A stretch of DNA of 64,000 nt from Planctomycetota bacterium (GCA_965222115.1 CBDCTJ010000007.1:2656001-2720000), one strand, 5' to 3'. Shown: positions 12,496 through 31,675, counted from the stretch's first letter. Numbers and translations are program-made. The notes: generated by a model not told the origin, from the letters alone.

Positions 12496-12542
12496 GGGAT
12501 TCGATCATGGGCTCATGCGCGGCGACGCCATTCGCTCGTTTC

Positions 12543-12716
12543 CCCGTCACCCGAAACCCGAACTCAAGTGTGAGCGTCCGGTGATCGATTCGCGCCAGTT
12601 CGTGGACGTCAAGAGCAAATGGCTTTGCCATTTGCGCGAAGACCGTGAGTAAGCACCAGCAGATCTCTGATCCGCGCAGTGCGCATCGATCGGTGGACGT
12701 GGACGTACAAGTGGAC
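12543..12716 (+). repeat. Structured repeat module R, copy 1 (full; 1 internal GTGGAC)
   Basis: CCCGTCA CCCGAAA ladder, CTCAAGTGTGAGCGTCC, GATCGATTCGCGCC, GCAAATGGC-TTT-GCCATTTGC hairpin, GAGTAAGCACCAGC, GATCTCTGATCCGCGCAGTGCGCATCGA..GTGGACG. Confidence 0.9.
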
Positions 12717-12736
12717 AAAAGCGTGTATCGGAGAAG

Positions 12737-12782
12737 GACCCCAACGGGGTCACGTGTAATAGCCTGGGGTTTTAACCCCAGG
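12737..12782. repeat. REP-like double palindrome
   Basis: GACCCC-AAC-GGGGTC (12737-12751) and CCTGGGGTT-TT-AACCCCAGG (12763-12782). Confidence 0.6.
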
Positions 12783-12878
12783 TATAGTCGTCTCTTCTCT
12801 TTAGCGTTCTGTAGGGACGCCGCCCGACTGCATGCAAGTCCGAGTGAGCTCCTGCGATTTCTAATCTGCGCAGAACGC

Positions 12879-13041
12879 ACCGAACTGCTTGCTGTATGAC
12901 TTGAAAGTGCACGGGGCAACACCCTTTGGGAAGTGCTACGTGCATGCCCCACTCGCCACGAGGGCGAGGGCACGCACTCGCATTCCCGCGGGTGTTTCCT
13001 CGTGGAGCTTCTCGTATGTCATACAGCAAACAGTTCTCGGT
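12879..13041 (+). promoter_or_regulatory. Long leader hairpin (type A) overlapping the start of the four-helix-bundle gene
   Basis: 12882-12900 pairs with 13018-13036 (18/19); nested stems CACGGGGCAACACCC/GGGTGTTTCCTCGTG, GTGCATGCCC/GGGCACGCAC and CTCGCC/GGCGAG. Confidence 0.8.
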
Positions 13042-13402
13042 TACTTCCACGGCGGGTCGGCTTGAACGATTCGATGTGTATCGAATCGCACGTCGTGTCG
13101 CGGCCAGTATTCACCAGCTCTGTGGATCGCTGCCTCGAGGCAACGCCGAGCTTGCAAGCCAAGCTCGACGAGCCTCTACAGCCGTCGTCCTCAACATCGC
13201 GGAGGGTATCGGCCGCGCTGGCGCGGGCGCCAAACACCGCTCGTTCTCAATTGCTCGCGGTGAGTGCGTCGAGGCCGCCGCGGCACTCGACCTCATGCAG
13301 GCGATGGGCATTATCACAGGAGCCAGCGCCGCACCGACGCTTCATGATCTAGATCGCGTCCGCGCGATGCTGAATGCGCTGATCCGCCGCTGGCGGGAGT
13401 GA
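13016..13402 (+). CDS. Four-helix-bundle protein (bAvd / 23S rRNA IVP-like family), subfamily A copy 1
   Basis: 128 aa; RFDVY...LASQARRASTAVVLNIAEGIGR...FSIARGECVE matches the family signature; GGAG upstream of the ATG. Confidence 0.9.
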   Translation: MSYSKQFSVTSTAGRLERFDVYRIARRVAASIHQLCGSLPRGNAELASQARRASTAVVLNIAEGIGRAGAGAKHRSFSIARGECVEAAAALDLMQAMGIITGASAAPTLHDLDRVRAMLNALIRRWRE

Positions 13403-13468
13403 GGCACGCCCATTCGCAGCGAACCTCGCAAAAAGTGCCGGGTGTAATTTTGCACCGGTTAGCGCACT

Positions 13469-13845
13469 CCCGCCACCCGTCACCCGTTCCCCGAAACCCG
13501 TCACCCGGACTCAAGTGTGAGCGTCCGATAATCGATTCGTGTCGCGTTCAAAACGTGGACGTGGACGTGGACGTGGACGTGGACGTGGACGTGGACGTGG
13601 ACGTGGACGTGGACGTGGACGTGGACGTGGACGTGGACGTGGACGTGGACGTGGACGTGGACGTGGACGTGGACGTGGACGTGGACGTGGACGTGGACGT
13701 GGACGTGGACGTGGACGTGGACGTGGACGTGGACGTGGACGTGGACGTGGACGTCGAGAGCAGATGGGCGAAGCCCGTTTGCACGAGACCCTGAGCAAGC
13801 ACCAGAGGATCTGTGATCCGCGCGGTGCGCATCGAAGGGTGGACG
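13469..13845 (+). repeat. Module R copy 2 (full) containing (GTGGAC)33 at 13555-13752
   Basis: Five-heptamer ladder, CTCAAGTGTGAGCGTCC, perfect 198-bp hexamer array, GATGGGC-GAA-GCCCGTT hairpin, conserved 3' tail. Confidence 0.95.
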
Positions 13846-13858
13846 CCCTCGATGCCTA

Positions 13859-14551
13859 TCACGCACGGCGTGGCGGGCCGTCGAGGATGTCGGCGTGTGG
13901 CGCGTCTCTTATTGTCTTTCGTTCCGCTCCGCGTTCGCGGAGATGAAGAGTCAGGTCGACTACGATCTTCGCGATGACGAGAACAGCCAGGATGCCGATG
14001 GTGCTGTTGAAGAGCAAGACAACAAAGTTACCTAAAATAATGGCGAACTGCATGATAAAGATTCGCGTGTACGCCGCGGCCATGGGATCGAAGGATGCGT
14101 CCGCTGCCTGGACAACGTTCTTCTTAAAGTTCAAGGCATACGAAATGCCGTGGCTAACAAACATCGCGCCTATCACCAGAAGCCAGTGCGGTTCCAGTCT
14201 ACCAAGTGTATCGATCGTGTAGTTGAAGAACGAGTGGGACTTGGGTCGCGAAATCAGGATGCTGTTTGACCATGAAGGTCTCGTCAGTATCCACAGGAAC
14301 AATGCGTGTCCCACCATAAACCCACCGAAGTGCAGCGTGAAGAAGGACACGTCAAAGAACGCATTCCTTTTCCTCTTGAGTGAGAACAACTTCAGAATGG
14401 AGTAGAATCCGATGACGGCAGATTCGGCCCAGTATAGATAGAGCACCATGGCGAGGTCCCACCCCCCTGCCAGCACGCCGTAGAGTGGAATCAAGTTGAC
14501 GGCAATCAGTGTGAAGATTGCGAGTGGATGGGAGCGTGCAAATTGCGTCAT
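13859..14551 (-). CDS. Membrane protein, DUF6498-like
   Basis: NLIPLYGVLAGGW...LYWAESAVIG, FFTLHFGGF..GH and YTRIFIMQ pattern; multiple TM helices. Confidence 0.75.
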   Translation of the reverse strand: MTQFARSHPLAIFTLIAVNLIPLYGVLAGGWDLAMVLYLYWAESAVIGFYSILKLFSLKRKRNAFFDVSFFTLHFGGFMVGHALFLWILTRPSWSNSILISRPKSHSFFNYTIDTLGRLEPHWLLVIGAMFVSHGISYALNFKKNVVQAADASFDPMAAAYTRIFIMQFAIILGNFVVLLFNSTIGILAVLVIAKIVVDLTLHLRERGAERKTIRDAPHADILDGPPRRA

Positions 14552-14713
14552 GATCGCGAGACTCCTGAATCGGGAATGCATGTCAAGCGCAGTTCGAGTA
14601 TCGGGGGCATCGCATGGCGCAAAATTTCAGTTTCAGCATCCGAGGCGAATTTCTAGCCCCCTGCGGTGCGCTTCGGAAGGGACTCCGGTACGTGATTCGG
14701 TAAGCTCTCGACC

Positions 14714-15709
14714 ATGGCCAGCAGTTTCGGAAGCGTGTTCTGTTCGACGTATGCCCTCGCTACATTCGAGAGCGGGGGCTGGAGTCCATGGACGCTTGCG
14801 CCTGTGGCACCCATCTCGATTCATCCGGGGGCGCACGGGCTGCACTACGGAAGCAGTTGTTTCGAAGGGCTCAAGGCGTATCGCCGCGACGACGGACGAG
14901 TACACATCTTTCGCCTTGACCGGCATGTTGAACGCATGCAGGCGAGCGCAGAGGCTTTGCGGCTGCCCGTTCCCGATGCCTCGCAATTTCACGACATGAT
15001 CTATGCGTTGGTTGATCGGTGCCGCGATGAGGTTCCGGTCTATCCAGGCGCCCTCTACATTCGACCGATTCTCTTTGGCACGTTGGAGTCGGTTGGCGCG
15101 GCCGGATCCGCGAGCGACGAAGCGCAACTCGTTGTTTTGGTGTGTCCCGTGGGAGACTACTTTGAGGGCGGTATGCGACCGCTTCGTATAGCCACTGTCA
15201 CCGATCGTGCACGCGCCGCACCTGGATTCGGTTGCGTAAAGACGGGTTCGAACTATGCCGCGGCGCTGCGCCCTGTCCTCACCGCGAAGCGAGACCATGA
15301 CGCCGATCAAGTGTTGTTTTGTCCAGATGGCAACGTTCAGGAGACAGGCGCCGCCAACTTCATCGTGATTCACAACAAGACGGTGATTACCAAACCACTG
15401 GACGACACGATCTTGCACGGCGTCACCCGCGACTCCCTGCTGACGATTGCACCTTCACTTGGCTTCAATGTAGAAGAACGCGAGTTCTCCGTGGATGAGC
15501 TACTTACGTGGGCGCCGAACGCAGAAGCAGGTTTGTCCGGTACCGCGGCCGTACTTGCGCCGGTTGGCGTGCTCATTCACGAGGGCAAAGAGCACGTGGT
15601 GGGTGATGGGAGCATTGGTCCGAACGTCAGAAAGCTGCGTGAAGCATTGACCGCGATTCAATCCGGCGATGCCGAAGATGAGTACGGGTGGTTGCTGTCC
15701 GTGACGTAA
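14714..15709 (+). CDS. ilvE: Branched-chain amino acid aminotransferase (PLP class IV)
   Basis: LHYGSSCFEGLKAYR, LYIRP, KTGSNY, ETGAAN and ILHGVTRDS motifs. Confidence 0.93.
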   Translation: MASSFGSVFCSTYALATFESGGWSPWTLAPVAPISIHPGAHGLHYGSSCFEGLKAYRRDDGRVHIFRLDRHVERMQASAEALRLPVPDASQFHDMIYALVDRCRDEVPVYPGALYIRPILFGTLESVGAAGSASDEAQLVVLVCPVGDYFEGGMRPLRIATVTDRARAAPGFGCVKTGSNYAAALRPVLTAKRDHDADQVLFCPDGNVQETGAANFIVIHNKTVITKPLDDTILHGVTRDSLLTIAPSLGFNVEEREFSVDELLTWAPNAEAGLSGTAAVLAPVGVLIHEGKEHVVGDGSIGPNVRKLREALTAIQSGDAEDEYGWLLSVT

Positions 15710-15752
15710 CGCATGCATGTGCTACTCGACATATGTCCCGCGCTCATCGTTT

Positions 15753-15834
15753 CCCTTTTCCCGTTTCCCGTCACCCGGAATCCAGATTTGTGCCGGGTGC
15801 ATTTTCGCGCGCGGTGTGCATCGAAGGGTAGACG
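15753..15834 (+). repeat. Module R copy 3 (partial: heptamers plus 3' tail)
   Basis: CCCGTTT CCCGTCA CCCGGAA ... GCGCGGTGTGCATCGAAGGGTAGACG. Confidence 0.75.
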
Positions 15835-15835
15835 C

Positions 15836-16210
15836 TCATGGAACGTTGAATCGCCGCTGGAGGACGAACAACATCGCGGCGGTTCGCTCCAGCGTGTTCA
15901 TGACTCGCGAAACTTTGAGTTCACTCGAGAGACGGAGTAGGAGCGCGTGATGTAGAGCCGCGATGGCTTCGGTGCATTCGGCGTGTGCAATGTCGTAGGC
16001 CCTGCGCTTCTCGGCTGCCCGCCGTTTCGATAGGCCTTCGGCGACGTTTAGGGCAACGCTGGTGCTTGCGCGCCTGAGTTGATCGGCAAGTTTTGCGTTG
16101 CCTCGTGGCCACTCGGCGCAGATGGCGACGCACTCGACTGCCGCGGCCTGCGAAGCACGGTAGACGTCGAAGCGTTTGAGGTACTCGAGCGTTGAAGACG
16201 CGCTTGTCAT
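15836..16210 (-). CDS. Four-helix-bundle protein, subfamily B copy 1
   Basis: 124 aa; RFDVY...LADQLRRASTSVALNVAEG...YDIAHAECTE; GGAG SD 7 nt upstream. Confidence 0.9.
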   Translation of the reverse strand: MTSASSTLEYLKRFDVYRASQAAAVECVAICAEWPRGNAKLADQLRRASTSVALNVAEGLSKRRAAEKRRAYDIAHAECTEAIAALHHALLLRLSSELKVSRVMNTLERTAAMLFVLQRRFNVP

Positions 16211-16366
16211 GATGGAACTCCAGTTGAAGGGAACGCAAGCCGTTTGCTCGCGTGTGCCCTTCGCAAAAGAGCCGAAGGCGAAGGAGGGCACACGCGAGCG
16301 GGTCGTACAAACAGAGCCCGCGTGACAGCGACAACTCGTTCCCAAACTGGAGTTCCATCACAAGCG
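16201..16366 (-). promoter_or_regulatory. Long leader hairpin (type B) sequestering the SD and start codon
   Basis: 16201-16225 pairs with 16345-16366 with a 3-nt bulge at the start codon; inner stems GGGAACG/CGTTCCC and GCTCGCGTGTGCCCT/AGGGCACACGCGAGC. Confidence 0.82.
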
Positions 16367-16417
16367 GCGCCTGCGCGTACCGAACGCGCTATGGCAACCG
16401 GCGGTGCTGTCCAAGGC

Positions 16418-16657
16418 CCAGTCACCCTTCACCCGTTACCCGTTACCCGTAAACCGAATCCCAGACTCAAGGGTGAGCGTCGGATGGACGATTCGCGCCG
16501 TCTTTACGTGGACGTGGACGTGGACGTGGACGTGGACGTGGACGTGGACGTGGACGTGGACGTGGACGTGGACGTGGACGTGGACGTGGACGTGGACGTG
16601 GACGTGGACGTGGACGTGGACGTGGACGTGGACGTGGACGTGGACGTGGACGTGGAA
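16418..16657 (+). repeat. Module R copy 4 (5' half) with (GTGGAC)24 at 16508-16651
   Basis: Heptamer ladder, CTCAAGGGTGAGCGTCGG, GATTCGCGCC, perfect 144-bp array. Confidence 0.95.
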
Positions 16658-16673
16658 TCAGATTGGGTGCATC

Positions 16674-17474
16674 TTAGTCGTCGTCTTTCTTGGGTACGTC
16701 TTTCTCAATCCACGACGTAATCATGTACCGCACTTCGACCCATGAAAGCGTGATTGTGTACTCGCGCGTTAGATGCTCATAGGTTACGAGGTACTTTGCT
16801 TGTAGGGAGTCGTTTTCACCGGGCCCAAACGATGTGCGCATGAGATTCTTGAACGCGCCTTGTTTTCCATCGACGAGATCGATCTTGGTTGGCAGTGACT
16901 CACGCTCAATCATATCGCCCGATACGAACTTCGAGATGGTTTGAGGATTGCCTTGCGCGACCTGCTCAACGGCGCCGCGCATGGCGTCCTGTTCGAGCAG
17001 TTTCCGCTGTTCATCGCGGGCAGTGATTACGTGCTCAGCCTGTGCGGCGCGAGGGGTTAACGTGTAACGTGCGATTAGCCAGCGGCCGCCTGTGGCTGGA
17101 TTTCGCCTAAGATGAAACGTGGAATCAAGGATGACGTGTTCGCAACTCAGCGTAGCAAGTACCGTCTTTCGCGCCTTGCCTCCTGTTTCCGACACCTCCT
17201 CGATTCGAATGTCGTTTACCGCTCTCACGTTTCCGAATTGGGCTTGATACTGTTTCCGCTGTTCGCCGAATGCATGGGGGTGCCAATACACAAGAAGGGG
17301 CTTAGCGACATGTGGAAGTGTTTCGATGGAGTCATGCACCGCGTTGGACAACAGCGCCTTTGCGAATTCGGTAACGATGACCTCATGGGCGTCCTTCGTG
17401 GTTAGCGAGCTGATGGCGGCGAATAGCACACACGCCAACAACGTAAGCCCAAGCGCCTTGAATACGGGACCCAC
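16674..17474 (-). CDS. Hypothetical exported or membrane-anchored protein
   Basis: 266-aa ORF with an N-terminal hydrophobic helix; directly downstream of the dehydrogenase gene. Confidence 0.7.
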   Translation of the reverse strand: MGPVFKALGLTLLACVLFAAISSLTTKDAHEVIVTEFAKALLSNAVHDSIETLPHVAKPLLVYWHPHAFGEQRKQYQAQFGNVRAVNDIRIEEVSETGGKARKTVLATLSCEHVILDSTFHLRRNPATGGRWLIARYTLTPRAAQAEHVITARDEQRKLLEQDAMRGAVEQVAQGNPQTISKFVSGDMIERESLPTKIDLVDGKQGAFKNLMRTSFGPGENDSLQAKYLVTYEHLTREYTITLSWVEVRYMITSWIEKDVPKKDDD

Positions 17475-17485
17475 GGCGCGGCCTC

Positions 17486-18517: not shown

Positions 18518-18655
18518 GCGGGGTATCCTCCGAACACACCGCGTGGGGCGCGCGAAAAAAGGCTTTGTGAACGACGCAAAGTATCGAGCATTTCGCGGCG
18601 CGTAGCGAATTGTCCAGGCGCCCAATGCGCCCATTTCTGATGGAGACCGCCGATC

Positions 18656-20524: not shown

Positions 20525-20593
20525 GTGGCGGGAAGGAAGTAGATCCTGCGAAACAGGCCGGATGGAGTCTGAAGGATTCGTGCGTATTTCCTT

Positions 20594-20764
20594 ACCGTTA
20601 CCCGAAACCCGAAACCCGGGCTCAAGTGTGAGCGCTCAATGATCGATTCACGCCGGGTCGTCGAGAGTGAATGGCTTTGCCATTTGCACGAAGACCCTGA
20701 GTAAGCACCAGCGGATCTCTGATCCGCGCAGTGCGCATCAAAGGGTGCGCATCGAAGGGTGGAC
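20594..20764 (+). repeat. Module R copy 5 (full; no internal GTGGAC)
   Basis: CCCGAAA ladder, CTCAAGTGTGAGC, ATGGC-TTT-GCCAT hairpin, GCGGATC-TCT-GATCCGC, duplicated GTGCGCATC.AAGGG tail. Confidence 0.9.
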
Positions 20765-20807
20765 CTCAAGTAGCGTAATAGTCGTATGCGTTCGGTACCG
20801 ATGGACC

Positions 20808-20965
20808 ACCGAACTGTTTGCTGTGTGACGTGAACGCGCACTGGGCAACACCCTTTGAGAAGTGCTACGTGCATGCCCCATTCGCCATGAGGGCGAGGGC
20901 ACGCACTCGCATTCCCGCGGGTGTTTCCTCGTGGAGTTTCTCGTATGTCACACAGCAAACAGTTC
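20808..20965 (+). promoter_or_regulatory. Long leader hairpin (type A), second copy
   Basis: 20811-20829 is the perfect reverse complement of 20947-20965; same nested stems as 12879-13041. Confidence 0.82.
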
Positions 20966-21331
20966 TCGATTACTTCCACGGCAGGTCGGCTTGAACGTTT
21001 CGACGTGTATCGAATCGCACGCCGTGCCGCGGCCAGCATTCACCAGCTTTGTGGATCCCTGCCGCGAGGCAACGCCGAGCTTGCAAGCCAAGCTCGACGA
21101 GCCTCTACAGCCGTCGTCCTCAACATCGCCGAGGGCATCGGGCGCGCTGGCGCAGGCGCCAAGCACCGTTCGTTCTCCATCGCTCGCGGCGAGTGCGTCG
21201 AGGCCACCGCGGCACTCGACCTCATGCACGCGATGGGAATCCTTACAGGCGCCCACGCCGCGCCAACGCTTCGCGACCTTGACCGCGTTCGCGCAATGTT
21301 GAACGCGCTCATCCGGCGCTGGAGGGAATGA
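20945..21331 (+). CDS. Four-helix-bundle protein, subfamily A copy 2
   Basis: 128 aa; 8 substitutions relative to 13016-13402 by eye. Confidence 0.9.
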   Translation: MSHSKQFSITSTAGRLERFDVYRIARRAAASIHQLCGSLPRGNAELASQARRASTAVVLNIAEGIGRAGAGAKHRSFSIARGECVEATAALDLMHAMGILTGAHAAPTLRDLDRVRAMLNALIRRWRE

Positions 21332-21339
21332 GGGGGTGT

Positions 21340-21572
21340 CCCGTTACCCGAGACCCGTTACCCGGACTCAAGTGTGAGCCTCTGATGATCGATTCGCGCC
21401 GTTCGTGGACGTGGACGTGGACGTGGACGTGGACGTGGACGTGGACGTGGACGTGGACGTGGACGTGGACGTGGACGTGGACGTGGACGTGGACGTGGAC
21501 GTGGACGTGGACGAAACCCTGAGTAAGCACCAACGGATCTCTGATCCGCGCGGTGCGCACCGAACGGTGGAC
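21340..21572 (+). repeat. Module R copy 6 with (GTGGAC)18 at 21405-21512
   Basis: Heptamer ladder, CTCAAGTGTGAGC, perfect 108-bp array, CCCTGAGTAAGCACC...GTGGAC tail; first 3' hairpin deleted. Confidence 0.95.
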
Positions 21573-21578
21573 ATGATG

Positions 21579-22283: not shown

Positions 22284-22322
22284 CGCCGTACTATACCCGC
22301 TGGTTCACCCCGGAGTCGGTCC

Positions 22323-23147: not shown

Positions 23148-23157
23148 CCTCTCGGGC

Positions 23158-24339
23158 ATGAATGCACCCTCACCGGCCACCCTCGTTCTTGCCGACGGGT
23201 CGGTCTTTCACGGACGACACTTCGGCGCCGACAAAGCGCGCGCGGGCGAAGTCGTGTTCAACACGGCCATGACCGGATACCAAGAGATCGCGACCGATCC
23301 GTCGTACGCGGGGCAAATTGTCTGCATGACGTACCCCCACATCGGCAATACCGGCGTGAATGACGAAGACCTCGAAGCGGCCCACCCGTGGATCGAGGCC
23401 TTCGTCGTGCGCGAACATTCGCCGATTGCCAGCAACTTTCGTTCGAACAACACCTTGGATGGATGGCTCAAGGCACACGACATCATTGGCATAGAAGGTG
23501 TTGATACGCGGCGCCTCACGCGTCATGTACGAACTATGGGAGCCATTGGCGGTGTCGTCGGCGGACCGGGAAGCAAGACCGACGCACTTTTGGAACAAGC
23601 GAAAGCGTTGCCTTCAATGGCCGGCATGGATCTTGTGACCACGGTGACATGCAAAGAGCCGTATTCCTTTGGTGAAGCGTGGCCCGAGCCATGGTTCCCT
23701 TCGCCAGAACACATCGGACAAGGACGCGACGGTGTTGGGCCTTCGAAGGCCGATTCGCTCTCGCCCAAGTCGGTCGTTGTCATGGACTTTGGTGTGAAAC
23801 GCAACATTCTTCGTTCACTTCGTACCTTTGGCTTAGAGCCTTACGTGGTTCCTGCCTCGACCTCAGCCGCCGACATTTTGGCGCGTAATCCCGACGGCGT
23901 GTTTTTTAGCAATGGTCCGGGAGATCCCGCCGCCGTTACCTATGCCATTGACACCATCAAGGAACTGCTGGGCAAGGTTCCCACATTCGGGATTTGCCTC
24001 GGGCACCAACTGATGGCGTTGGCGGCGGGGGCAAAGACCCGCAAGCTCAAGTTCGGTCACCGCGGCGCCAACCATCCCATTCGCGAACACGCCACGGGTC
24101 GCATAGAAATCACGAGCCAAAATCACGGCTTTGTGGTGGAAGAAGAGAGCCTGGGCGGCACCCCATTCAAGCCTACGCACACCAACCTCAACGACAACAC
24201 CAATGCCGGCATGGCCAGCGAGGCCCTACGCGCATTCGCCGTCCAGTACCACCCCGAGGCCGCCCCCGGTCCACGCGACGCCGGGCATCTGTTTTATCGC
24301 TTTCGCCAGCTGATTGAAGGTAGTGCAACGTTGGTGTGA
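23158..24339 (+). CDS. carA: Carbamoyl-phosphate synthase small subunit
   Basis: GEVVFNTAMTGYQE, SNGPGDP, GICLGHQL and VQYHPEA motifs. Confidence 0.97.
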   Translation: MNAPSPATLVLADGSVFHGRHFGADKARAGEVVFNTAMTGYQEIATDPSYAGQIVCMTYPHIGNTGVNDEDLEAAHPWIEAFVVREHSPIASNFRSNNTLDGWLKAHDIIGIEGVDTRRLTRHVRTMGAIGGVVGGPGSKTDALLEQAKALPSMAGMDLVTTVTCKEPYSFGEAWPEPWFPSPEHIGQGRDGVGPSKADSLSPKSVVVMDFGVKRNILRSLRTFGLEPYVVPASTSAADILARNPDGVFFSNGPGDPAAVTYAIDTIKELLGKVPTFGICLGHQLMALAAGAKTRKLKFGHRGANHPIREHATGRIEITSQNHGFVVEEESLGGTPFKPTHTNLNDNTNAGMASEALRAFAVQYHPEAAPGPRDAGHLFYRFRQLIEGSATLV

Positions 24340-24363
24340 CCCCAGTGAGCTTCCTCGCGGTTG

Positions 24364-24466
24364 CCCGTTACCCGTGATGCGCGGCCCGACACCCGTTACC
24401 CGATACCCGGACTCAAACGTGAGCGTACGATGGTCGATCTGTGCAGCGCGCATCGAACGGTGGACG
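24364..24466 (+). repeat. Module R copy 7 (internally collapsed)
   Basis: Heptamer ladder, GGACTCAAACGTGAGCGTAC, joined to GCGCATCGAACGGTGGACG. Confidence 0.85.
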
Positions 24467-24467
24467 G

Positions 24468-24842
24468 TCAGGGACCGCCGAATTTGTGTTGAAGCACGAA
24501 CAACATGGCGGCGGCGCGTTCTAGGGTGTTCATCGCCTGCGACGTTGCGCGCTCGCTTGCGATTCCAAGCAGCTGGGCGTGATGCAGCGCAGCGATCGCT
24601 TCGGTGCACTCGGCGTGGGCGATGTCGTATGCCTTGCGCTTCTCGGCGGGGCGGCGCTTCGCCAGCCCCTCTGCGACGTTGAGTGCAACGCTGGTACTAG
24701 CGCGCCGGAGTTGATCGGCGAGTTTTGCGTGGCCTCGAGGCCATGTTGCGCAGAGCGCGACGCACTCGACTGCTGCTGCCTGCGAAGCACGGTAGACATC
24801 GAAGCGTTTGAGGTAATGGAGCGTGGAAGACGCGCTTGTCAT
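24468..24842 (-). CDS. Four-helix-bundle protein, subfamily B copy 2
   Basis: 124 aa; LADQLRRASTSVALNVAEG; antisense to the flanking carA and purA. Confidence 0.9.
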   Translation of the reverse strand: MTSASSTLHYLKRFDVYRASQAAAVECVALCATWPRGHAKLADQLRRASTSVALNVAEGLAKRRPAEKRKAYDIAHAECTEAIAALHHAQLLGIASERATSQAMNTLERAAAMLFVLQHKFGGP

Positions 24843-25000
24843 GATGGAACTCCAGCGTGAAGGGAACGCAAGCCGTTTGCTCGCGTGTGCCCTTCACAAA
24901 AGAGCCGAAGGCGAAGGAGGGCACACGCGAGCGGGTCGTACAAAAAGTCCCCTCGTGACAGCGACAACTCGTTCTCAAGCTGGAGTTCCATCACAAGCGC
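24832..25000 (-). promoter_or_regulatory. Long leader hairpin (type B), second copy
   Basis: GCGCTTGT-cat-GATGGAACTCCAGC pairs with GCTGGAGTTCCATC-ACAAGCGC. Confidence 0.82.
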
Positions 25001-25041
25001 AGCCCGCGCGTAACGGTCGCGCATGCCTTGCCCGCGGCCCG

Positions 25042-25220
25042 CCCGGAATCCGTCACCCGTATCCCGTCATCCGGACTCAAATGTGGACATCCGATGATCG
25101 ATTCACGCCGGTTCGTGGACGTGGACGTGGAGAGCAGATGGGCGAAGCCCATTTGCGCGAAGACCCTGAGTAAGCACCAGCGGATCTCTGATCCGCGCAG
25201 TGCGCATCGAAGGGTGGACG
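25042..25220 (+). repeat. Module R copy 8 (full; (GTGGAC)2)
   Basis: Heptamers, GGACTCAAATGTG, GATGATCGATTCACGCC, GCAGATGGGC-GAA-GCCCATTTGC, conserved tail. Confidence 0.92.
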
Positions 25221-25250
25221 CAAATTGGTGCCGGGCGCGAACGTGCGTGC

Positions 25251-25351
25251 CCCGCGACCCGTTCCCCCGTACCCCGAGCCCCGATTCCCGTCACCCATCA
25301 CTCGTTACCCGACACCCGGTCGCCAGTGTGAGCGTTCAATGAACGACTTGC
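25251..25351 (+). repeat. Module R copy 9 (5' fragment, degenerate)
   Basis: About nine degenerate CCCGNNN units, then CAGTGTGAGCGTTCAATGAACGA. Confidence 0.75.
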
Positions 25352-25454
25352 AGTGCAAATTGCCACCGGGAGCGAACTCCGCGAATTGCGCTCATTTTGA
25401 GTCGTTCCCCGTCATCTGCCCGGGTAGAATCCGCTTTTACACGGAGAATGCGCC

Positions 25455-26777
25455 ATGAGCGTAACCTGTGTCTTTGGTATGCACTGGGGCGACGAGGGTA
25501 AGGGGCGCATTGTAGACCTGCTCGCCGCGCAGTCCGATGTGGTTGTCCGTTTTCAGGGTGGCGCAAACGCGGGCCACACCGTCATTGTGGACGACCAAAA
25601 ATATGTGCTTCACCTCCTGCCCTCGGGCGTGATTCAACCCAGCACGATCAATGTGATCGGAAACGGCGTCGTGGTGGATCCCGAAGTCGTGCTGGCCGAA
25701 ATCGACGAGCTTGTGGGCCGTGGGATCAAGCTCGATGGGCGTCTATTCATCTCGGACCGCGCCCACGTTGTGCTGCCGCATCACAAGTTGCTTGACCGTG
25801 CGTTTGAGGCGTTGCGTGGCGATGGCGCGCTGGGCACGACCTTTCGCGGCATCGGACCTGCATATTCGGACAAAGCGAGCCGAGACGGCGTGCGGATCGT
25901 TGACTTGCTTGAGACCAAACGTTTTGCTCCGGCGCTCACCATGGCGAAGCGCTACGGCGATCCGATTCTTGAGAAGGTGGGCATGGACCCCATCGACGTG
26001 GACGCGTCGGCAAAACAACTGTCCGCGTGGGGGAAACGATTGCGCCCCTTTGTTCGCGACACGGTTTCGTTTCTTCTTGATCAGCAAGAGAAGGGCGTGC
26101 GCATCTTGCTCGAAGGTGCGCAAGGGTACGCACTCGACATCGATCACGGCACTTATCCGTTTGTTACGTCAAGTAGTACGTGCCCGGCGGGTGCGGCTGC
26201 AGGCACGGGGTTGCCGCCGCGCGCGATCGACGAAATGGTTGGTGTTGTTAAGGCCTATAGCACGCGCGTGGGCGCTGGACCATTTCCCACGGCAGCGGAA
26301 CCGTCGGTCGCGGAACATCTTGGCAAGCACGGCGCCGAATTTGGCGCTACGACCGGGCGACCACGGGGCTGCGGCTGGTTCGATGGCGTGATCGCGAAGC
26401 GTGCCATTGAAACGCAGGGCGTCGATTCTGTTTGCCTCATGAAGATGGACGTGCTCTCGGGACTCACCGAAATCAAGGTGTGCACGGCCTACACATACCA
26501 AGGAGAAACGCTTACTGCGCCGCCGGCTTGGATTGGTGACTGGGACGACCTGAAACCGGTCTATACCACCTATGACGGTTGGAACGAGGACATTTCTGGC
26601 GTTCGGCACTTCATCGACTTGCCGGTCGCGGCGCAACATTACGTACATGCGATTGAATCGTTCCTCAACACGCCCATATCCATTGTGAGCGTGGGGCCGG
26701 AACGCGATCAGTTTATTGACATGACGCGTCCGCATCAATCTGTAAAAAACGTGGGTTCCAAAGTACAGGCCGGATAG
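25455..26777 (+). CDS. purA: Adenylosuccinate synthase
   Basis: WGDEGKG, GGANAGHT, DIDHGTYPFVTSS and EFGATTGRPR motifs. Confidence 0.98.
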   Translation: MSVTCVFGMHWGDEGKGRIVDLLAAQSDVVVRFQGGANAGHTVIVDDQKYVLHLLPSGVIQPSTINVIGNGVVVDPEVVLAEIDELVGRGIKLDGRLFISDRAHVVLPHHKLLDRAFEALRGDGALGTTFRGIGPAYSDKASRDGVRIVDLLETKRFAPALTMAKRYGDPILEKVGMDPIDVDASAKQLSAWGKRLRPFVRDTVSFLLDQQEKGVRILLEGAQGYALDIDHGTYPFVTSSSTCPAGAAAGTGLPPRAIDEMVGVVKAYSTRVGAGPFPTAAEPSVAEHLGKHGAEFGATTGRPRGCGWFDGVIAKRAIETQGVDSVCLMKMDVLSGLTEIKVCTAYTYQGETLTAPPAWIGDWDDLKPVYTTYDGWNEDISGVRHFIDLPVAAQHYVHAIESFLNTPISIVSVGPERDQFIDMTRPHQSVKNVGSKVQAG

Positions 26778-26806
26778 CGGCCTGGCACGAAAGAGGCACG
26801 TCGCGC

Positions 26807-27715
26807 ATGACCAGCGATTCCACGTCTACGTCAAAGAGCAGTCGCGATGTGCGCGTGCGACTCGTCGTAGCACCCATCGTCTTGGCCGTCGTATTGGGCA
26901 CGATCTGGCTCGCTGAACACTTCGAGTCGCGCCTTCCACTTCATCTCTTGATCATGTTTTTTGCCATTGGTTCAGGCATTGAGTTTGTGCGCATGCTTGC
27001 GCCGTCAGGGACAAGCGAGCGCCTCAAGGGCGGAGCGTTGGCGTGGATCACGTGCGGACTGCTTGCGGGGGTGGGTTTGATCGAGCTTCTGCGGCCCACG
27101 TCAAGTTACGTCGCCGATGCGGGTCTGCGCATGGAACTGCGCGTACTCATCGTCATCGCATTCACCTGGTGCATCTTGGTGGGCAAGTACTTCTTGGATA
27201 CACGTCACAAATCCACGTCCGAAATTGGCCGCGTCTTTCTGCCCGTGCTCTACATCGGCCTACCGCTCTCGCTAGCATGTGAAATTTGTGCTGGCCCTCT
27301 TGCGGCGCGTCGGGTCATGTGGGTGGTCTTGGTCGCCAAAGCGTGTGACATCGGTGGCTGGGTATTTGGCAAGCTGTTTGGCAAGCACAAAATGGTGCCC
27401 ACCGTGTCGCCAGGAAAGTCGTGGGAAGGCACCACGGGGGGCATTGTCCTGAGCATCGCCGCGGCGGTATTCCTTCCCGACCTATTCGGATTGCCTGAGT
27501 CCGAGTGGTCCGTAGCGATGCGCGTGGGATTCGGATTCATGGTGGGGGCGGCCACCATCTTGGTGGGCGTCACGCAAAGCGGATGGAAACGCCGTGCAGG
27601 CGTCAAGGACTCAAGCGCCCTGATTCCGGAGATGGGCGGCATCCTCGACATGACCGATTCGCTGCTCTTTGCGGTTCCGGTGGCGTATCTGTGGTATCGA
27701 TTTGTGGTGGCGTAG
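26807..27715 (+). CDS. cdsA: Phosphatidate cytidylyltransferase
   Basis: SPGKSWEG and KRRAGVKDS..IPEMGGILD motifs; polytopic membrane protein. Confidence 0.9.
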   Translation: MTSDSTSTSKSSRDVRVRLVVAPIVLAVVLGTIWLAEHFESRLPLHLLIMFFAIGSGIEFVRMLAPSGTSERLKGGALAWITCGLLAGVGLIELLRPTSSYVADAGLRMELRVLIVIAFTWCILVGKYFLDTRHKSTSEIGRVFLPVLYIGLPLSLACEICAGPLAARRVMWVVLVAKACDIGGWVFGKLFGKHKMVPTVSPGKSWEGTTGGIVLSIAAAVFLPDLFGLPESEWSVAMRVGFGFMVGAATILVGVTQSGWKRRAGVKDSSALIPEMGGILDMTDSLLFAVPVAYLWYRFVVA

Positions 27716-27778
27716 TTGAACGCGTTAGAGTGGCCGGCCCTTTCGAAGACATATCATCAAAAGCACCACGAGTTCCAC

Positions 27779-28846
27779 ATGCCCCAAGTCCGCATCGCCA
27801 ACACCGGAGAAGCCGCGCAGCGCGTGTTGTTTGGTCCTATGGACAAACATCTGCGCCGGATTCGTGAGCATTTCGGCGTGCGCATAAGCGCTCGCAACGA
27901 AGTACTCACGCTTGAGGGCGACGATGTGGACGCGGTTGAAGATGTCGCGCGACGATTGAAGCGCGTGTTGGGTCGCATGAATGGGCGCACCGAGCCACCT
28001 GAGAACGAAGTCGAAGAGATTTTGCTTGGATCCGGAAAGCCATCGTCGAGTCGCAAGATTCGAACCTCAAACGGACCACGCACGGGCACAGGCCAAGCGC
28101 CTCACCGCATGTCGAAGACCACGGCGCGTGATCACGGCGGTTCGATTGCACCCAAACCAAAGACGCCGGGCCAAGAACGCTACATCGATGCCATCCGAGA
28201 GCACGACGTCGTGTTTGCCTTGGGGCCGGCGGGCACGGGCAAAACGTTTTTGGCAGTCGTAGAAGCCGTGCGTTGCCTACGAGACGGCACGGCCCGCAAG
28301 ATTATCCTCACGCGTCCCGCGGTGGAGGCAGGTGAGAAGCTAGGATTTTTGCCGGGTGATTTTCAAGCGAAGATCAATCCCTATTTACGACCGCTCTATG
28401 ATGCGCTGGGCGAGTTGCTAACGCACGCCGAAGTACAACGCTACTTCGAGGCCGACGTGATTGAAATTGTGCCGTTGGCCTATATGCGCGGTCGCACCTT
28501 GAAAGAGGCATTCATCATTCTTGACGAGGCGCAGAATACGACTCCCGCGCAGATGAAGATGTTTCTCACACGTATGGGCGAACGATCCAAAGTCGTCGTA
28601 AATGGCGACGCATCCCAGGTGGACTTGCCCGGTGGAACTACATCATCGGGGCTGAGTCAAAGCGTTCGCATTCTTGAGGATGTTCCCGGAATCGCCGTGG
28701 TTCGCTTCGCACCAACCGACATATTGCGTCATCCGTTGGTTCAACGCATTGTGGATGCCTATGACCGCGAAGACGATCGACGAGCAGCGAATGAGTCATC
28801 AAGCGACGCAGACGATGTGAGCGACGACGAATCGCAAGGCGCATGA
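27779..28846 (+). CDS. phoH: PhoH family ATPase
   Basis: [31 protein letters not shown] and DEAQN motifs. Confidence 0.95.
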
Positions 28847-29310
28847 GTGGCGGTTCCCCAACGGCTTCCGTATCGATTGTCGATTGCGTAGAGATTCCCG
28901 GAGGTAAGTCGGTTTTCGAGCGACGCATGCAAGCTGTGGCACACATGGCGGCTGCCTATGCCGGGTGTTCGTTGGAGCTCGTCTATGTGGTGCTTGGGGA
29001 CGACGAGATGCGCGCGCAGAACAAAGCTGCGCTCAACCATGACTATCCAACCGATGTGCTCTCCTTTGACATGGGTCACACACACGACATACGTCACGGC
29101 GAGATCCTTGTGTCGGCCGACACCGCCGTTCGTGAAGCAGCATCTCGCGCACACAGTGGGGCAGATGAGTTGTGCCTGTATGCAGTTCACGGCACACTCC
29201 ACTTCGTGGGGTACGACGATCACGATCCCGCCGATCGAAGACGAATGCGTGCTGCCGAGAGGCGATGGCTACGCCGATTGGGTTGCAATGCAATCTACGG
29301 ACGTCGGTAA
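28843..29310 (+). CDS. ybeY: rRNA maturation RNase YbeY
   Basis: PTDVLSF and [12 protein letters not shown] motifs; follows phoH. Confidence 0.92.
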
Positions 29311-29395
29311 TCGCCCCCGCCCTACTCACGCCCCCCGCGAATGATTGCCCTTTACGCCTCTCTCTCCGAGGATAGGGCGTCCTTCGGAGATCGTC

Positions 29396-30589
29396 ATGTC
29401 GAGTCAGCAGCACCTTGTCGAACGCGTCTTAGAAATGGGCGTGGCCACCCGTGAGCAGGTGGATGAGGCCCTTGAAATTTGCAGTCGGCTCAGTGAAATG
29501 GGCATGAAGTCGCGCTCCGTGATCGACGTTCTTTTCGAAAAGGAATACATCGACAAGGAAGTTTTCGATCGGCTCCAGCGCGAAGCCAAGCGTGTGGAGG
29601 GCAAAGAGCAAATTGCCGGCTATCGCCTCCTCGATCGTCTCGGTGAGGGCGCGATGGGTGCCGTCTATCGTGCAAAGCAGCTTTCGCTGGATAGAGAAGT
29701 GGCTGTCAAGGTTCTCGACCCCGAACTGGCGAGCAATGACGAGTACGTCAAGCGTTTCATGAGCGAGGCGCGCGCCGTGGCCCGACTCAATCACACAAAC
29801 ATTATCAGCGGCATCGATGTGGGCGACGCAGACGGCATCAAATATCTCGTTATGGAGTATGCCGACGGAATGACGGTGAGTTCCCTGCTTGAACGCGGCG
29901 GTGCGCTCGATGAAGAGCGCGCGTTGTGGGTTGTGCTCCAAATGGCTCGTGCCTTAGATCACGCGCATCGCAACAACTTGGTTCACCGCGACGTCAAACC
30001 CGACAACATCATCATCACGAAAGATGGCGTCGCGAAGCTGTGTGACTTGGGTCTTGCCCGATTGGAAAGCGCGGAGGGTGAGGCGCCCCAACGTATGGGC
30101 ACCCCCGCCTACATTTCGCCCGAGCAGGCTCGCGGCGATGTAACCGTGGACGAACGTACCGATCTCTATAGCTTGGGCGCCACGTGGTTTCACATGGTAA
30201 CCGGTCGCCCGCCCTACACCGGCAACGACGCAGGTGCTGTACTCGCCAAACACCTCACGGAACCCGTGCCCCACGTGCGAACAATCGATCCCACGATTAG
30301 CGAGATGAGCGATGAACTGGTCTTTGGTCTGCTCCAAAAGCGCCGCGGCGACCGAACCGAGTCCGCCAGCGTTTTGATTCCGCAGTTGGAATCCGCCATT
30401 CGCGAATTGCAGTTGGCTCGTGGTGCCAGCCCCTCCAGTGCGATGGGCGTAGCAGCGAAAGCAAAACCAGCCGCCGGTTCCATCAAGGTTCCTGTGCGTC
30501 CCGCAGCCCCGGAACCGCGCTCCGCGGATGTTCCCAGTCGTCCAAGTGCTCCGATCGCTCCAAGACCAAGGCGTCGGCGAAGGCGTTAG
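29396..30589 (+). CDS. Hanks-type Ser/Thr protein kinase
   Basis: LGEGAMGAVY, VAVK, HRDVKPDN, DLGLA and GTPAYISPEQ motifs; Pro/Arg-rich tail. Confidence 0.95.
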   Translation: MSSQQHLVERVLEMGVATREQVDEALEICSRLSEMGMKSRSVIDVLFEKEYIDKEVFDRLQREAKRVEGKEQIAGYRLLDRLGEGAMGAVYRAKQLSLDREVAVKVLDPELASNDEYVKRFMSEARAVARLNHTNIISGIDVGDADGIKYLVMEYADGMTVSSLLERGGALDEERALWVVLQMARALDHAHRNNLVHRDVKPDNIIITKDGVAKLCDLGLARLESAEGEAPQRMGTPAYISPEQARGDVTVDERTDLYSLGATWFHMVTGRPPYTGNDAGAVLAKHLTEPVPHVRTIDPTISEMSDELVFGLLQKRRGDRTESASVLIPQLESAIRELQLARGASPSSAMGVAAKAKPAAGSIKVPVRPAAPEPRSADVPSRPSAPIAPRPRRRRRR

Positions 30590-30645
30590 GGTTCGCCTCC
30601 TAGCGGACAGTTTTCTGCACGTGGTTCCCGACTCTGTTTTCAGCG

Positions 30646-30759
30646 CCCGTATGCCGTTACCCGTTACCCGAGACCCGATACCCGATACCCGATACCCGAT
30701 ACCCGGTCTCAAGTGTGAGCATCCGATGATCGATTCGAGGCACGTTTAAGACGTGGACG
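30646..30759 (+). repeat. Module R copy 10 (5' half; 1 GTGGAC)
   Basis: Eight heptamers including (CCCGATA)4, CTCAAGTGTGAGCATCCGATGATCGATTCG, ends in GTGGACG. Confidence 0.9.
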
Positions 30760-30760
30760 A

Positions 30761-31135
30761 TCACGGTTCGTCGAATCGGCGCTGAAGTACGAACAACATG
30801 GCGGCGGATCGCTCCAAGCTGTTCATGACGAGTGAGATTGCGGCTTCGCTGGCGAGACCAAGCAATAGCGCGTGGTGTAGAGCGGCAATGGCCTCGGTGC
30901 ATTCGGCGTGTGCGATGTCGTAGGCCCTGCGCTTTTCGGCTGGCCGCCGTTTCGATAGGCCTTCAGCGACGTTTAGCGCAACGCTGGTACTTGCGCGCCT
31001 GAGTTGATCGGCGAGCTTTGCGTGGCCGCGAGGCCATGCGGCGCAGATTGCGACGCACTCGATCGCCGCGGCTTGCGAAGTACGGTAGACATCGAAGCGT
31101 TTGAGGTACTCGAGCGTAGAAGAGGCGCTTGTCAT
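30761..31135 (-). CDS. Four-helix-bundle protein, subfamily B copy 3
   Basis: 124 aa; same signature as the other B copies. Confidence 0.9.
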   Translation of the reverse strand: MTSASSTLEYLKRFDVYRTSQAAAIECVAICAAWPRGHAKLADQLRRASTSVALNVAEGLSKRRPAEKRRAYDIAHAECTEAIAALHHALLLGLASEAAISLVMNSLERSAAMLFVLQRRFDEP

Positions 31136-31291
31136 GATGGAACTCCAGATGAAGGGAACGCAAGCAGTTTGCTCGCGTGTGCCCTTCGCAAAAAAGCCGA
31201 AGGCGAAGGAGGGCACACGCGAGCGGGTCGTACAAAAAGAACCCGCGTGAAAACGACAACTCGTTCCCAAGCTGGAGTTCCATCACAAGCG
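31126..31291 (-). promoter_or_regulatory. Long leader hairpin (type B), third copy
   Basis: CGCTTGT-cat-GATGGAACTCCAG pairs with CTGGAGTTCCATC-ACAAGCG; inner stem conserved. Confidence 0.82.
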
Positions 31292-31342
31292 GCGCCCGCG
31301 CGTACCGTTTGCGCTGGAGCTACCGGCGGTGCTGTCCAAAGT

Positions 31343-31598
31343 CCCGTCACCCGTTACCCGTCACCCGTTACCCGTCACCCGTTCCCCGTGACCCGTACTC
31401 AAGGGCGGGCATCCGATGAACGATTTGCGCCGTCTTAACGTGGACGTGGACGTGGACGTGGACGTGGACGTGGACGTGGACGTGGACGTGGACGTGGACG
31501 TGGACGTGGACGTGGACGTGGACGTGGACGTGGACGTGGACGTGGACGTGGACGTGGACGTGGACGTGGACGTGGACGTGGACGTGGACGTGGACGTG
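31343..31598 (+). repeat. Module R copy 11 (5' half) with (GTGGAC)26 at 31440-31595
   Basis: Seven CCCGT(C/T)A-type heptamers, CTCAAGGGCGGGCATCCGATGAACGATTTGCGCC, perfect 156-bp array. Confidence 0.95.
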
Positions 31599-31610
31599 CG
31601 ATCTGCAATA

Positions 31611-31675
31611 CCCGTTACCCGAACCCCGTCACCCGCTACCCGGGCTCAAGTGTGAGGCTCCGATGATCGATGCGC
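31611..31675 (+). repeat. Module R copy 12 (5' fragment)
   Basis: Four heptamers plus GGGCTCAAGTGTGAGGCTCCGATGATCGATGCGC abutting the next gene's stop. Confidence 0.85.

Follow-up and report, generated by a model that had tools for sequence, protein, structure and literature searches.

Repeat-framed cassettes carrying four-helix-bundle protein genes in the terminus-side region of a Planctomycetota chromosome

What are five copies of one small gene doing in the spacers between housekeeping genes, each preceded by a structured leader and set between direct copies of an intergenic repeat? The question is raised by a stretch of 64,000 nucleotides from a Planctomycetota bacterium (GCA_965222115.1, CBDCTJ010000007.1), here called the window, which spans positions 2,656,001-2,720,000 of a contig that we designate C7. 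A first-pass annotation, made from the sequence alone, had described five loci with the plan repeat (R), leader and gene, R, and had suggested a mobile or repeat-targeted cassette. Direct copies of R were indeed found on both sides of the gene at all five loci. The genome under study (G000), that of an uncultured planctomycete, comprises 4.55 Mb in 7 contigs with 59% G+C; its PurA protein is 61-64% identical to the nearest named records, all of which are metagenome-assembled genomes (MAGs) of Planctomycetota. The reading that we prefer, with a probability of roughly 0.55, is that the loci belong to a long-lived, host-retained family of non-autonomous cassettes that is framed by R, kept by selection, gated at the level of translation and spread by recombination between R copies, rather than to a recently active transposon. 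Positions with the prefix C7 refer to the contig, and those of the five loci to the window.

All five open reading frames (ORFs) are, as annotated, intact genes of the PF05635/TIGR02436 family, their products scoring 60.8-72.6 bits with TIGR02436 (curated cut-off 24) and 62.8-70.2 bits with PF05635 (cut-off 33.8). The division into two subfamilies was also reproduced: A, on the plus strand, with two copies that differ at 8 of 128 residues, and B, on the minus strand, with three. A and B proteins are 41-44% identical to each other. Profile matches, an AlphaFold2 model and Foldseek comparisons agree with the proposed relationship to Avd, the accessory protein of diversity-generating retroelements (DGRs). 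The model of A (predicted local distance difference test score 90.6) consists of four long helices forming a four-helix bundle; it superposes on XCC0516 (2GSC; template modelling (TM) score 0.78-0.91) and on BT_0352 (2RLD), and more distantly on the Avd protein bAvd (4DWL; TM 0.70/0.83). A sequence-profile match to 2GSC was obtained at E 1e-17, and the 2GSC and 2RLD structures contain five chains each. Searches with the PADLOC and PHROGs profiles returned no family matching the A or B proteins. To our knowledge, the part that Avd plays in retroelements is the one established role in the PF05635/TIGR02436 family. By homology to XCC0516 and bAvd, the A and B proteins are expected to be nucleic-acid-binding oligomers. 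With bAvd they share the fold, small size and basic character. bAvd, which the titles of its PDB entries (4DWL, 8UBE) describe as a pentamer bound to RNA and reverse transcriptase, is however only 12-14% identical to them, and it works with a DGR reverse transcriptase, whereas the cassettes have none adjacent.

In total, 18 intact copies were identified in the genome (8 A and 10 B), all of them above the profile cut-off and without internal stops, in addition to one 28-codon remnant of an A gene. Every copy lies on C7 between 2,274,560 and 2,848,043, a region of approximately 575 kb next to the replication terminus. Divergent pairs of the form R-B(-)-R-A(+)-R occupy four loci, and the remaining copies are single. 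The first-pass annotation had taken the copies for the product of a recent spread, a view that their divergence contradicts. Mean synonymous divergence (dS) within the subfamilies is 0.58 (A) and 0.68 (B), with ratios of nonsynonymous to synonymous divergence (dN/dS) of 0.08 and 0.11, respectively. Differences between whole units of leader and gene amount to 9-14% in A and 6-21% in B; B4 and B8 are the closest, 6.3% apart, and no two of the 18 units are identical. The copies are old, and purifying selection maintains each of them, protein and leader alike.

The positions of the cassettes can be compared with those in related genomes. The gene order icd - ceramidase-like - lonN - purE-like - carA - purA - (uppS-like) - cdsA - phoH - ybeY - kinase recurs in eight related MAG contigs (the name uppS-like is our reading of a translated ORF). 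Between carA and purA, none of the eight relatives has a PF05635 match (tblastn, E <= 1e-5). This spacer measures 100-172 bp in six of them, while in the other two carA is inverted or the spacer holds an unrelated 328-codon frame; in G000 it measures 1,116 bp and holds cassette 4. Similarly, the ceramidase-lonN spacer is 195 bp long in the one relative that covers it, versus 1,055 bp in G000 with cassette 3. Since these junctions are empty in the relatives, the cassettes are insertions into a conserved housekeeping order and not old vertical neighbours, which is the outcome that the proposal of a cassette had led one to expect at carA-purA. In the protein tree, A and B of G000 are sisters (support 100/98) and the copies of each other genome group separately; the expansions of PF05635 are therefore lineage-specific. 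Copy numbers range from 0 to 21 in 30 relatives, and the family is present in 149 of 301 sampled Planctomycetota genomes, in many of them with several copies. A metagenome scan with protein A returned distant relatives only, at 33-51% identity, and no sister strain.

These data also bear on a simpler view, namely that the genes form an ordinary paralogous family that grew by local duplication, that R is a shared regulatory or terminator region, and that no cassette ever moved. The old divergence, the purifying selection on each copy and the clustering of the copies in one region would all be expected on this view, as would the isolation by distance seen among the A copies, whose sequence distance follows chromosomal distance (r = 0.79). 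Local duplication would, however, have to explain why the neighbouring genes are not duplicated, why single cassettes stand between different housekeeping genes, in a conserved gene order with empty spacers in the relatives, and why R occurs also alone and around other genes. We regard it as improbable.

An artefact of assembly, in which repeat copies were collapsed or invented, is scarcely credible. Microsatellites and repeats are hard to assemble, and the reads at hand, from three runs of one study, possibly come from the same sample as the assembly. In short-read contigs of these three runs, nevertheless, cassette 4 is joined without a mismatch to unique flanks on both sides: carA is bridged into gene B (23800-24656), and R3b, one of the R modules described below, is connected to purA (25191-26000). 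Read depth is 3-5 on the flanks of cassette 4 and approximately 55 on leader and R3 sequences, that is, 10-18 times the flank depth, and the 18 copies diverge mutually by 6-21%. The bridging contigs and the raised depth on shared parts establish that the cassette copies are real, a point on which the first-pass annotation had depended. Another contig of the genome, C6 (48,116 bp), has 39.7% G+C as compared with 55-59% in the other six, and may be a foreign replicon or a binning contaminant.

The leaders provide the second line of evidence. Their mean pairwise identity is 91% (A) and 84% (B), with stretches at 95-99%, against 68% (A) and 67% (B) at the third codon positions of the genes and 91-97% at first and second positions. 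Leaders are as conserved as first and second codon positions, and this comparison of identities indicates selection on the non-coding parts, in keeping with the conserved leaders that had been annotated. The annotated "leader hairpin" is real as a structure but was understated, because each leader is a predicted rod of 60 pairs that includes the Shine-Dalgarno sequence and start codon. In leader B, with three compensatory pairs among 60, an outer helix formed by GATGGAACTCCAGC and GCTGGAGTTCCATC includes GGAG and stops one base before the ATG; it reaches 19-25 bp in the window copies and encloses a 20-bp hairpin. Leader A forms one rod with 60 pairs (consensus -86 kcal/mol); in its basal 19-22 pairs, positions -134 to -116 are paired with the start codon and codons 2-7. 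Compensatory changes affect two pairs of the rod, and one of these couples an A/G change in the leader with a Tyr/His codon change. Compensatory evidence is thin inside G000 because the leader sequences are so conserved.

Comparison between genera of the order gives stronger evidence. In 13 leaders of the genomes G020, G003 and G013, from three other genera, a hairpin lies just 5' of the Shine-Dalgarno sequence with 16 pairs kept, 5 of the 16 showing compensatory changes. A covariance model built from 12 of these leaders found matches in 5 of 40 genomes of the order: G020 (41), G003 (12), G013 (2), and G323 (10) and G243 (2), which had not been used in building it; the counts include both strands of the near-palindromic hairpin. 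The matches are confined to genomes with PF05635 expansions and, where coordinates were compared in G020 and G003, lie directly upstream of PF05635 genes. The model has no match in G000, the leaders of which have diverged in sequence. At gathering score, Rfam 15 contains no family for the window leaders or for 10 loci of G000 and relatives; the sole match at those 10 loci was mir-612, with 35 bits versus a gathering score of 100. Tandem leaders occur in two relatives. In G013 (L011, 1917-2327) the leader hairpin is repeated four times with a period of ~90 nt, interleaved with C-rich hexamer arrays, and in G020 duplicate leaders lie in tandem, as at C29:272-358 and 444-530. Motifs resembling promoters of the extracytoplasmic function type were inspected by eye and dropped, the spacing being unconvincing.

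The frame around these units had been described as one repeat module. Direct copies are present, as stated, but R is a mosaic of modules, R3 also stands alone and on other contigs, and R brackets other genes as well. The modules follow in fixed order: an array of 3-8 degenerate heptads (CCCGNNA), a 36-nt core (C1), a microsatellite of 1-33 perfect GTGGAC hexamers and, in some copies, R3a and R3b, which fold as two hairpins (z -1.8 to -4.6). The R3a stem has GGC/GCC swapped for GGGC/GCCC in some copies. Three other identities were considered for these modules and rejected: heptads and core as folded RNA (z +1.0 and +0.7, no excess folding); heptads as G-quadruplex tracts, for which the enrichment on the expected strand (6.4 versus 1.3-3.5 per 100 kb) merely restates the arrays; and R3b as a dif-like Xer site, since it has GGTGCGCAT in common with E. 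coli dif but no second arm.

On the R strand, each unit is preceded by the hexamer (or R3b) end of one R and followed by the heptads of the next. Orientation is fixed, A units running with R and B units opposite to it, and the B stop codon falls 2-5 nt from the hexamer tract. By blastn and regular-expression searches, the genome holds 37 heptad arrays, 36 cores, 27 hexamer tracts, 20 R3a and 40 R3b copies, of which 34, 33, 25, 16 and 25, respectively, lie at 2.27-2.945 Mb on C7; R3b is found on four other contigs too. Within 450 bp of any of the 18 genes are 26 of the heptad arrays, 23 of the cores, 19 of the hexamer tracts, 7 of the R3a and 11 of the R3b copies. The first three proportions put the flanking of these genes by R, as originally noticed, beyond chance. 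R modules stand on both sides of 17 of the 18 genes, if a degenerate R between B2 and A3 is counted; A3 has no right-hand R. Solo R copies and R-R tandems are present as well. The 3' end of the core exists in two variants, one mostly in the R upstream of genes and the other mostly downstream. In two R-R tandems, one 15-nt motif separates the hexamer tract from the next heptads (window 31596-31610 and C7:2732283); the genome has no further exact copy of it, and it possibly signals a vacant slot. A tRNA-Leu(taa) gene (C7:2316395-2316479) begins 6 nt past the hexamer tract on the right of A copy 2, and the outer flank of pair 4, judged by eye, resembles the 3' end of a tRNA gene.

No DNA match to R was found in 39 other genomes of the order. 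Among known bacterial repeats, R is most comparable to repetitive extragenic palindromes (REP) with their bacterial interspersed mosaic elements (BIME), and to the short tandemly repeated repetitive (STRR) heptamer sequences of cyanobacteria. All of these are modular intergenic repeats with hairpins and short tandem heptamers, present in many copies with a set module order and also solo. Unlike them, R is tied to one gene family: ~70% of the heptad arrays, cores and hexamer tracts fall no more than 450 bp from one of the 18 genes. It also stays within the terminus region and has a perfect hexamer microsatellite of as many as 33 units.

The cumulative GC skew of C7 is lowest near 0.58 Mb and highest at 2.76-2.78 Mb. 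At the maximum lies a loose dif-like palindrome (ACATAA-N6-TTATCA; C7:2,773,936), the only one in 2.70-2.85 Mb. R changes strand at this point. Before 2.77 Mb the ratio of plus to minus copies is 28/1 for heptad arrays, 25/2 for cores and 19/1 for hexamer tracts, and after it the ratios are 0/5, 0/7 and 1/4, respectively; cassette B9 and several solo R3 copies are the exceptions. The genes are distributed unevenly about the dif-like site, with 16 in the 0.5 Mb before it and two, forming one pair, 73 kb after.

Such an arrangement invites the idea of a chromosome-structure system, in which the oligomer would bind polar heptad and hexamer arrays at the terminus as an organiser of the Ter domain or a fork trap. 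All 18 genes and 34 of the 37 heptad arrays lie at 2.27-2.945 Mb around the dif-like site, where polarity flips, and degenerate heptads with a fixed CCCG core and variable spacers suit a protein-binding array better than slippage. The lopsided placement of the genes is hard to reconcile with such a system, as are the inverted B9 and R3 copies on the left arm. Moreover, repeat arrays in G020 show no polarity against skew, and PF05635 copies in the complete genomes of other families, among the rows listed, look scattered. We consider this explanation very unlikely. Given G020, the replication polarity of R is possibly a historical accident of G000; it may be a trace of local spread with a single orientation, or of selection that removed inversions between repeats of the same replichore, and need not reflect function.

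If the cassettes are insertions, an enzyme might be expected with them, and mobility, as we see it, is inferred. The first-pass annotation had found no transposase, reverse transcriptase or recombinase in the cassettes or the window. Pfam scans of 52 window ORFs gave the same result, and genome-wide searches with four enzyme profiles placed every match outside the window and all cassettes: six of the IS110 insertion-sequence type (PF01548), seven to PF00078 (two sets of three with identical scores, plus one), two Y1 (PF01797) and seven tyrosine recombinases (PF00589). One of the three identical-score reverse-transcriptase genes (C7:2631845-2632531, the PF00078 match nearest to any cassette) lies 1.4 kb from cassette B4 only and is probably a group II intron. 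The first-pass annotation had also suggested a search for genes of a reverse transcriptase, HUH transposase, REP-associated tyrosine transposase (RAYT) or recombinase flanked by R. No RAYT linked to R was found, and the sequence on either side of the Y1 gene at C7:1,411,691 does not resemble R. No enzyme for cassette movement was identified in the genome.

An active non-autonomous element could nevertheless be moved in trans by a HUH/Y1 transposase, a bridge-RNA recombinase of the IS110 type or Xer, with R as the recognition site. Consistent with this are the insertions relative to related genomes, the strict polarity of R relative to replication, a pattern shared with elements whose transposition goes through single-stranded DNA, and the presence of two Y1, six IS110 and two Xer-like integrase genes; two cassettes also abut tRNA genes or tRNA-like sequence. 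One IS110 copy even lies inside an R, between heptads at 2,359,766 and a core at 2,362,000. The segment in question (C7:2359601-2362098) contains, in order, the 28-codon A remnant, heptads, a 323-bp tandem repeat in three copies, the IS110 transposase gene (366 aa, minus strand) and an R core with hexamers; this copy looks like a passenger that struck an existing R. Trans-mobilisation further meets the difficulty that no two copies are closer than 6.3% with dS at ~0.6, that the flanks of the Y1 gene share nothing with R, that neither target duplications nor terminal inverted repeats were seen at the outer junctions, and that replication polarity is absent from G020. Purifying selection on every copy would be unexpected for a dead non-autonomous element. 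All in all, we find movement by an enzyme in trans unlikely.

Integron cassettes offer another comparison, as promoter-poor single-gene units that are bounded by structured, recombination-site-like repeats and occur in arrays (compare R-B-R-A-R) and with solo sites. The units described here differ in that no IntI lies nearby, all seven PF00589 matches being elsewhere; they are dispersed over 575 kb and not gathered in one array; and they have a 5' hairpin over the start codon and no 3' attC, with an R of 100-400 bp that includes microsatellites.

In the long-lived, translation-gated family that we favour, the leader helix would hold translation off over the Shine-Dalgarno sequence and start codon until it is opened or cut. 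The protein, an oligomer by homology, would most likely act on its own leader or on the heptad arrays; heptads with fixed CCCG and free spacer bases look more like a protein-binding array than like slippage, so that the arrays are candidate ligands together with the leader. Spread and decay of cassettes would both proceed through recombination between R copies: a unit together with one R would loop out and re-enter at another R, while R x R deletion would turn pairs into single cassettes and these into solo R. The ancestral unit would have been pair-sized. Recombination of this kind fits because the orientation of A and B to R is fixed and because pairs, singles, solo R and R-R tandems all occur; it fits also because core variants tend to mark the upstream and downstream R and because A copies show isolation by distance.

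Several observations weigh against this reading. Since R-like copies also bracket unrelated genes, namely a PAP2-like ORF (named from a motif by eye) and a 1118-aa ORF, R is a general intergenic repeat of the terminus-side region, with the four-helix-bundle unit as its commonest tenant, rather than a boundary specific to the cassettes. The reading offers no account of how R enters a new spacer. The rule for core variants is broken by B3, A4, B9 and locus P1. Neither target duplications nor terminal inverted repeats were detected by eye, where short duplications could escape, at the outer junctions of 14 cassette loci and five solo R, and an inverted-repeat search of the cassettes returned only the leader stems. 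Contigs covering cassette 4 (depth 3-5) showed no excision, circle or empty-site variant, their sole joint lying inside carA. Sigma-70-type promoters and intrinsic terminators were absent from cassettes 1 and 2. B copies show no isolation by distance (r = -0.04), and A and B distances over the four pairs are weakly congruent (r = 0.25, 6 comparisons); joint movement of A and B, once considered on these distances, was dropped as the comparison is uninformative. In G020, by our own reading, array strand agrees with local GC skew at 7 loci, disagrees at 5 and is unclear at 2. Finally, binding of the protein to leader or arrays is conjecture.

The comparison with other genomes places the cassettes in a wider context. 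G020, which belongs to the same order but a different family, has two PF05635 types in divergent pairs with the plan R-gene(-)-R-gene(+)-R, framed by direct copies of a repeat that combines (ACCCGA)n or (CCCCGA)n arrays with a core and hexamers of the GTGAAC type. In G013, (CCCGAN)n and (TCCCCA)n arrays lie upstream of PF05635 genes. Between G000 and G020 the architecture is conserved, while the sequences are not. In eight Planctomycetota genomes of other families (G054, G252, G125, G295, G109, G076, G042 and G041; 20 loci, L113-L132), PF05635 genes lie between degenerate tandem arrays with a period of 7-9. The best 56-nt window had a self-match of at least 0.6 upstream in 11 of the 20 loci, downstream in 8 and inside the coding sequence in none, versus 9 of 374 control blocks of related contigs and 3 of 40 outer stretches of the 20 loci themselves. 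At most of these loci the two arrays are reverse complements of each other. When six loci were searched for inverted repeats, five yielded arms of 28-50 nt that are 76-91% complementary and lie 376-442 nt apart, and over the 20 loci the flank duplex z averages -2.7, with 8 of 20 below -3. Inverted flanks enclosing the ORF were not found in G000 (mean z +0.9, 0 of 18 below -3). The loci with inverted arrays have no start-codon hairpin leader.

A transcript across both inverted arrays could enclose the ORF in a long stem, as in an intervening sequence (IVS) of 23S rRNA. The IVS of Coxiella burnetii is reported to be 428 nt long, to hold an ORF of the PF05635 family that is described as decaying, and to be excised by RNase III (PMC4990558). 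Cassettes and IVSs have in common the protein family, a unit of ~0.4-0.6 kb without an enzyme of its own, a patchy, lineage-specific occurrence and long helices at the unit edge or the ORF start. Unlike an IVS, the cassettes lie between protein-coding genes and not in helix 25 or 45 of 23S rRNA (no rRNA match was found in 11000-33000 of the window), their helix covers leader and start codon but not the ORF as a whole, and the repeat that frames them in direct copies contains a microsatellite. In contrast to the decaying ORF reported for Coxiella, all 18 copies are intact and under purifying selection.

The units might be RNA-level modules of the IVS kind, with helices that RNase III would cut, a protein produced rarely or only once the RNA has been processed, and an R that supplies hairpins for processing or stability. 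Membership of the A and B proteins in the IVS protein family speaks for this, as do the excision of the Coxiella element, the perfect 19-bp helices inside the 60-pair rods, the inverted arms around the gene elsewhere in the phylum and the twin hairpins of R3. The helix in G000 does not enclose the ORF, however, and its flanks are not complementary; the cassettes lie between protein genes, outside rRNA; and the strong purifying selection says that the protein is made and used. An RNA module of this kind is, in our judgement, also unlikely. The cassettes of G000 and G020 resemble a derived form of the layout with inverted arrays, one that has exchanged the enclosing arrays for direct mosaic repeats and a helix at the start codon.

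A broader and more speculative proposal, to which we give a small chance, would unite these forms. PF05635 genes might be carried by a single, widespread class of very small RNA-protein cassettes with heptad-type arrays at their borders; a ring oligomer would read the repeats, one per subunit, together with its own start-codon helix, and so control its own synthesis and RNA processing. The class would lodge in rRNA helices as IVSs or in spacers, and would here be embedded in a replication-polar terminus mosaic. A protein that reads short repeats has a precedent in the trp RNA-binding attenuation protein (TRAP), which reads GAG repeats.

The features of the five window loci are collected in Table 1. 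Genes next to the cassettes are nuo, aminotransferase, icd, ceramidase-like, lonN, carA, purA, kinase and peptidase C25 genes. Upstream of leader A, cassette 1 contains a twin-hairpin insert of ~180 nt, with a 32-nt relative at C7:3067747. Further upstream lies an ORF of 459 aa without a Pfam match, the 3' end of which (11808-12513) has three tandem coding repeats of 113-138 nt.

Table 1. Repeats, leaders and genes of the five cassettes (window positions)
Feature	Position	Strand	Details
Cassette 1 left R	12543..12700	+	heptads 12543-12563, core C1 12562-12596, R3a 12612-12653, R3b 12654-12695
Twin-hairpin insert, only upstream in cassette 1	12737..12782	-	weakly Acido-Lenti-1-like, 25 bits versus gathering score 37, E 0.055
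Cassette 1 leader A rod	12882..13036	+	60 predicted pairs
Cassette 1 leader A basal 19-bp helix	12882-12900 x 13018-13036		spans last base of ATG and codons 2-7
Cassette 1 gene A, 128 aa	13016..13402	+	PF05635/TIGR02436
Cassette 1 right R	13469..13846	+	heptads 13469-13510, C1 13509-13545, (GTGGAC)33 13555-13752, R3 13750-13846
Cassette 2 left R, partial	15753..15835	+	heptads, R3b-like end; abuts gene B stop codon
Cassette 2 gene B, 124 aa	15836..16210	-	PF05635/TIGR02436
Cassette 2 leader B	16211..16400	-	predicted outer 13-19 bp helix over GGAG, ending 1 base short of ATG; inner 20-bp hairpin
Cassette 2 right R	16420..16657	+	heptads, C1 16465-16500, (GTGGAC)24 16508-16651
Cassette 3 left R	20594..20766	+	heptads, C1, R3a, R3b
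Cassette 3 leader A rod	20811..20965	+	arms 20811-20829 / 20947-20965, 100% complementary
Cassette 3 gene A, 128 aa	20945..21331	+	PF05635/TIGR02436
Cassette 3 right R	21340..21574	+	heptads, C1, (GTGGAC)18, R3b
Cassette 4 left R	24364..24467	+	heptads, core, R3b-like end
Cassette 4 gene B, 124 aa	24468..24842	-	PF05635/TIGR02436
Cassette 4 leader B	24842..25032	-	arms 24842-24860 / 24975-24993, 95% complementary
Cassette 4 right R	25044..25351	+	heptads, C1, R3a, R3b to 25221; second partial R 25253-25351
Cassette 5 left R	30646..30760	+	heptads, C1
Cassette 5 gene B, 124 aa	30761..31135	-	PF05635/TIGR02436
Cassette 5 leader B	31124..31325	-	arms 31124-31148 / 31272-31296
Cassette 5 right R	31343..31675	+	heptads, core, (GTGGAC)26 31440-31595, 15-nt junction motif, second R 31611-31675

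The cassettes belong to the PF05635 "IVS protein" elements; what is new is the candidate RNA motif and the unusual repeat frame near the terminus. In the full-text literature searched, we found no description of stand-alone PF05635 cassettes, of their leaders or of their repeat frames. R is in itself an unusual case, combining long perfect microsatellites with a strictly replication-polar repeat restricted to the terminus region of a bacterial chromosome. The constant tie of PF05635 genes to short-period tandem arrays, direct and mosaic here and inverted elsewhere in the phylum, links the free-standing copies to rRNA intervening sequences. Eighteen paralogues, each kept by selection, argue for a cellular function over junk. 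PF05635/TIGR02436 is a large and widespread family with solved structures, to whose members here the role of Avd is inapplicable. The G000 locus gives new testable handles on it, among them a leader structure that hides the translation start, is absent from Rfam and recurs with compensatory changes in several genera.

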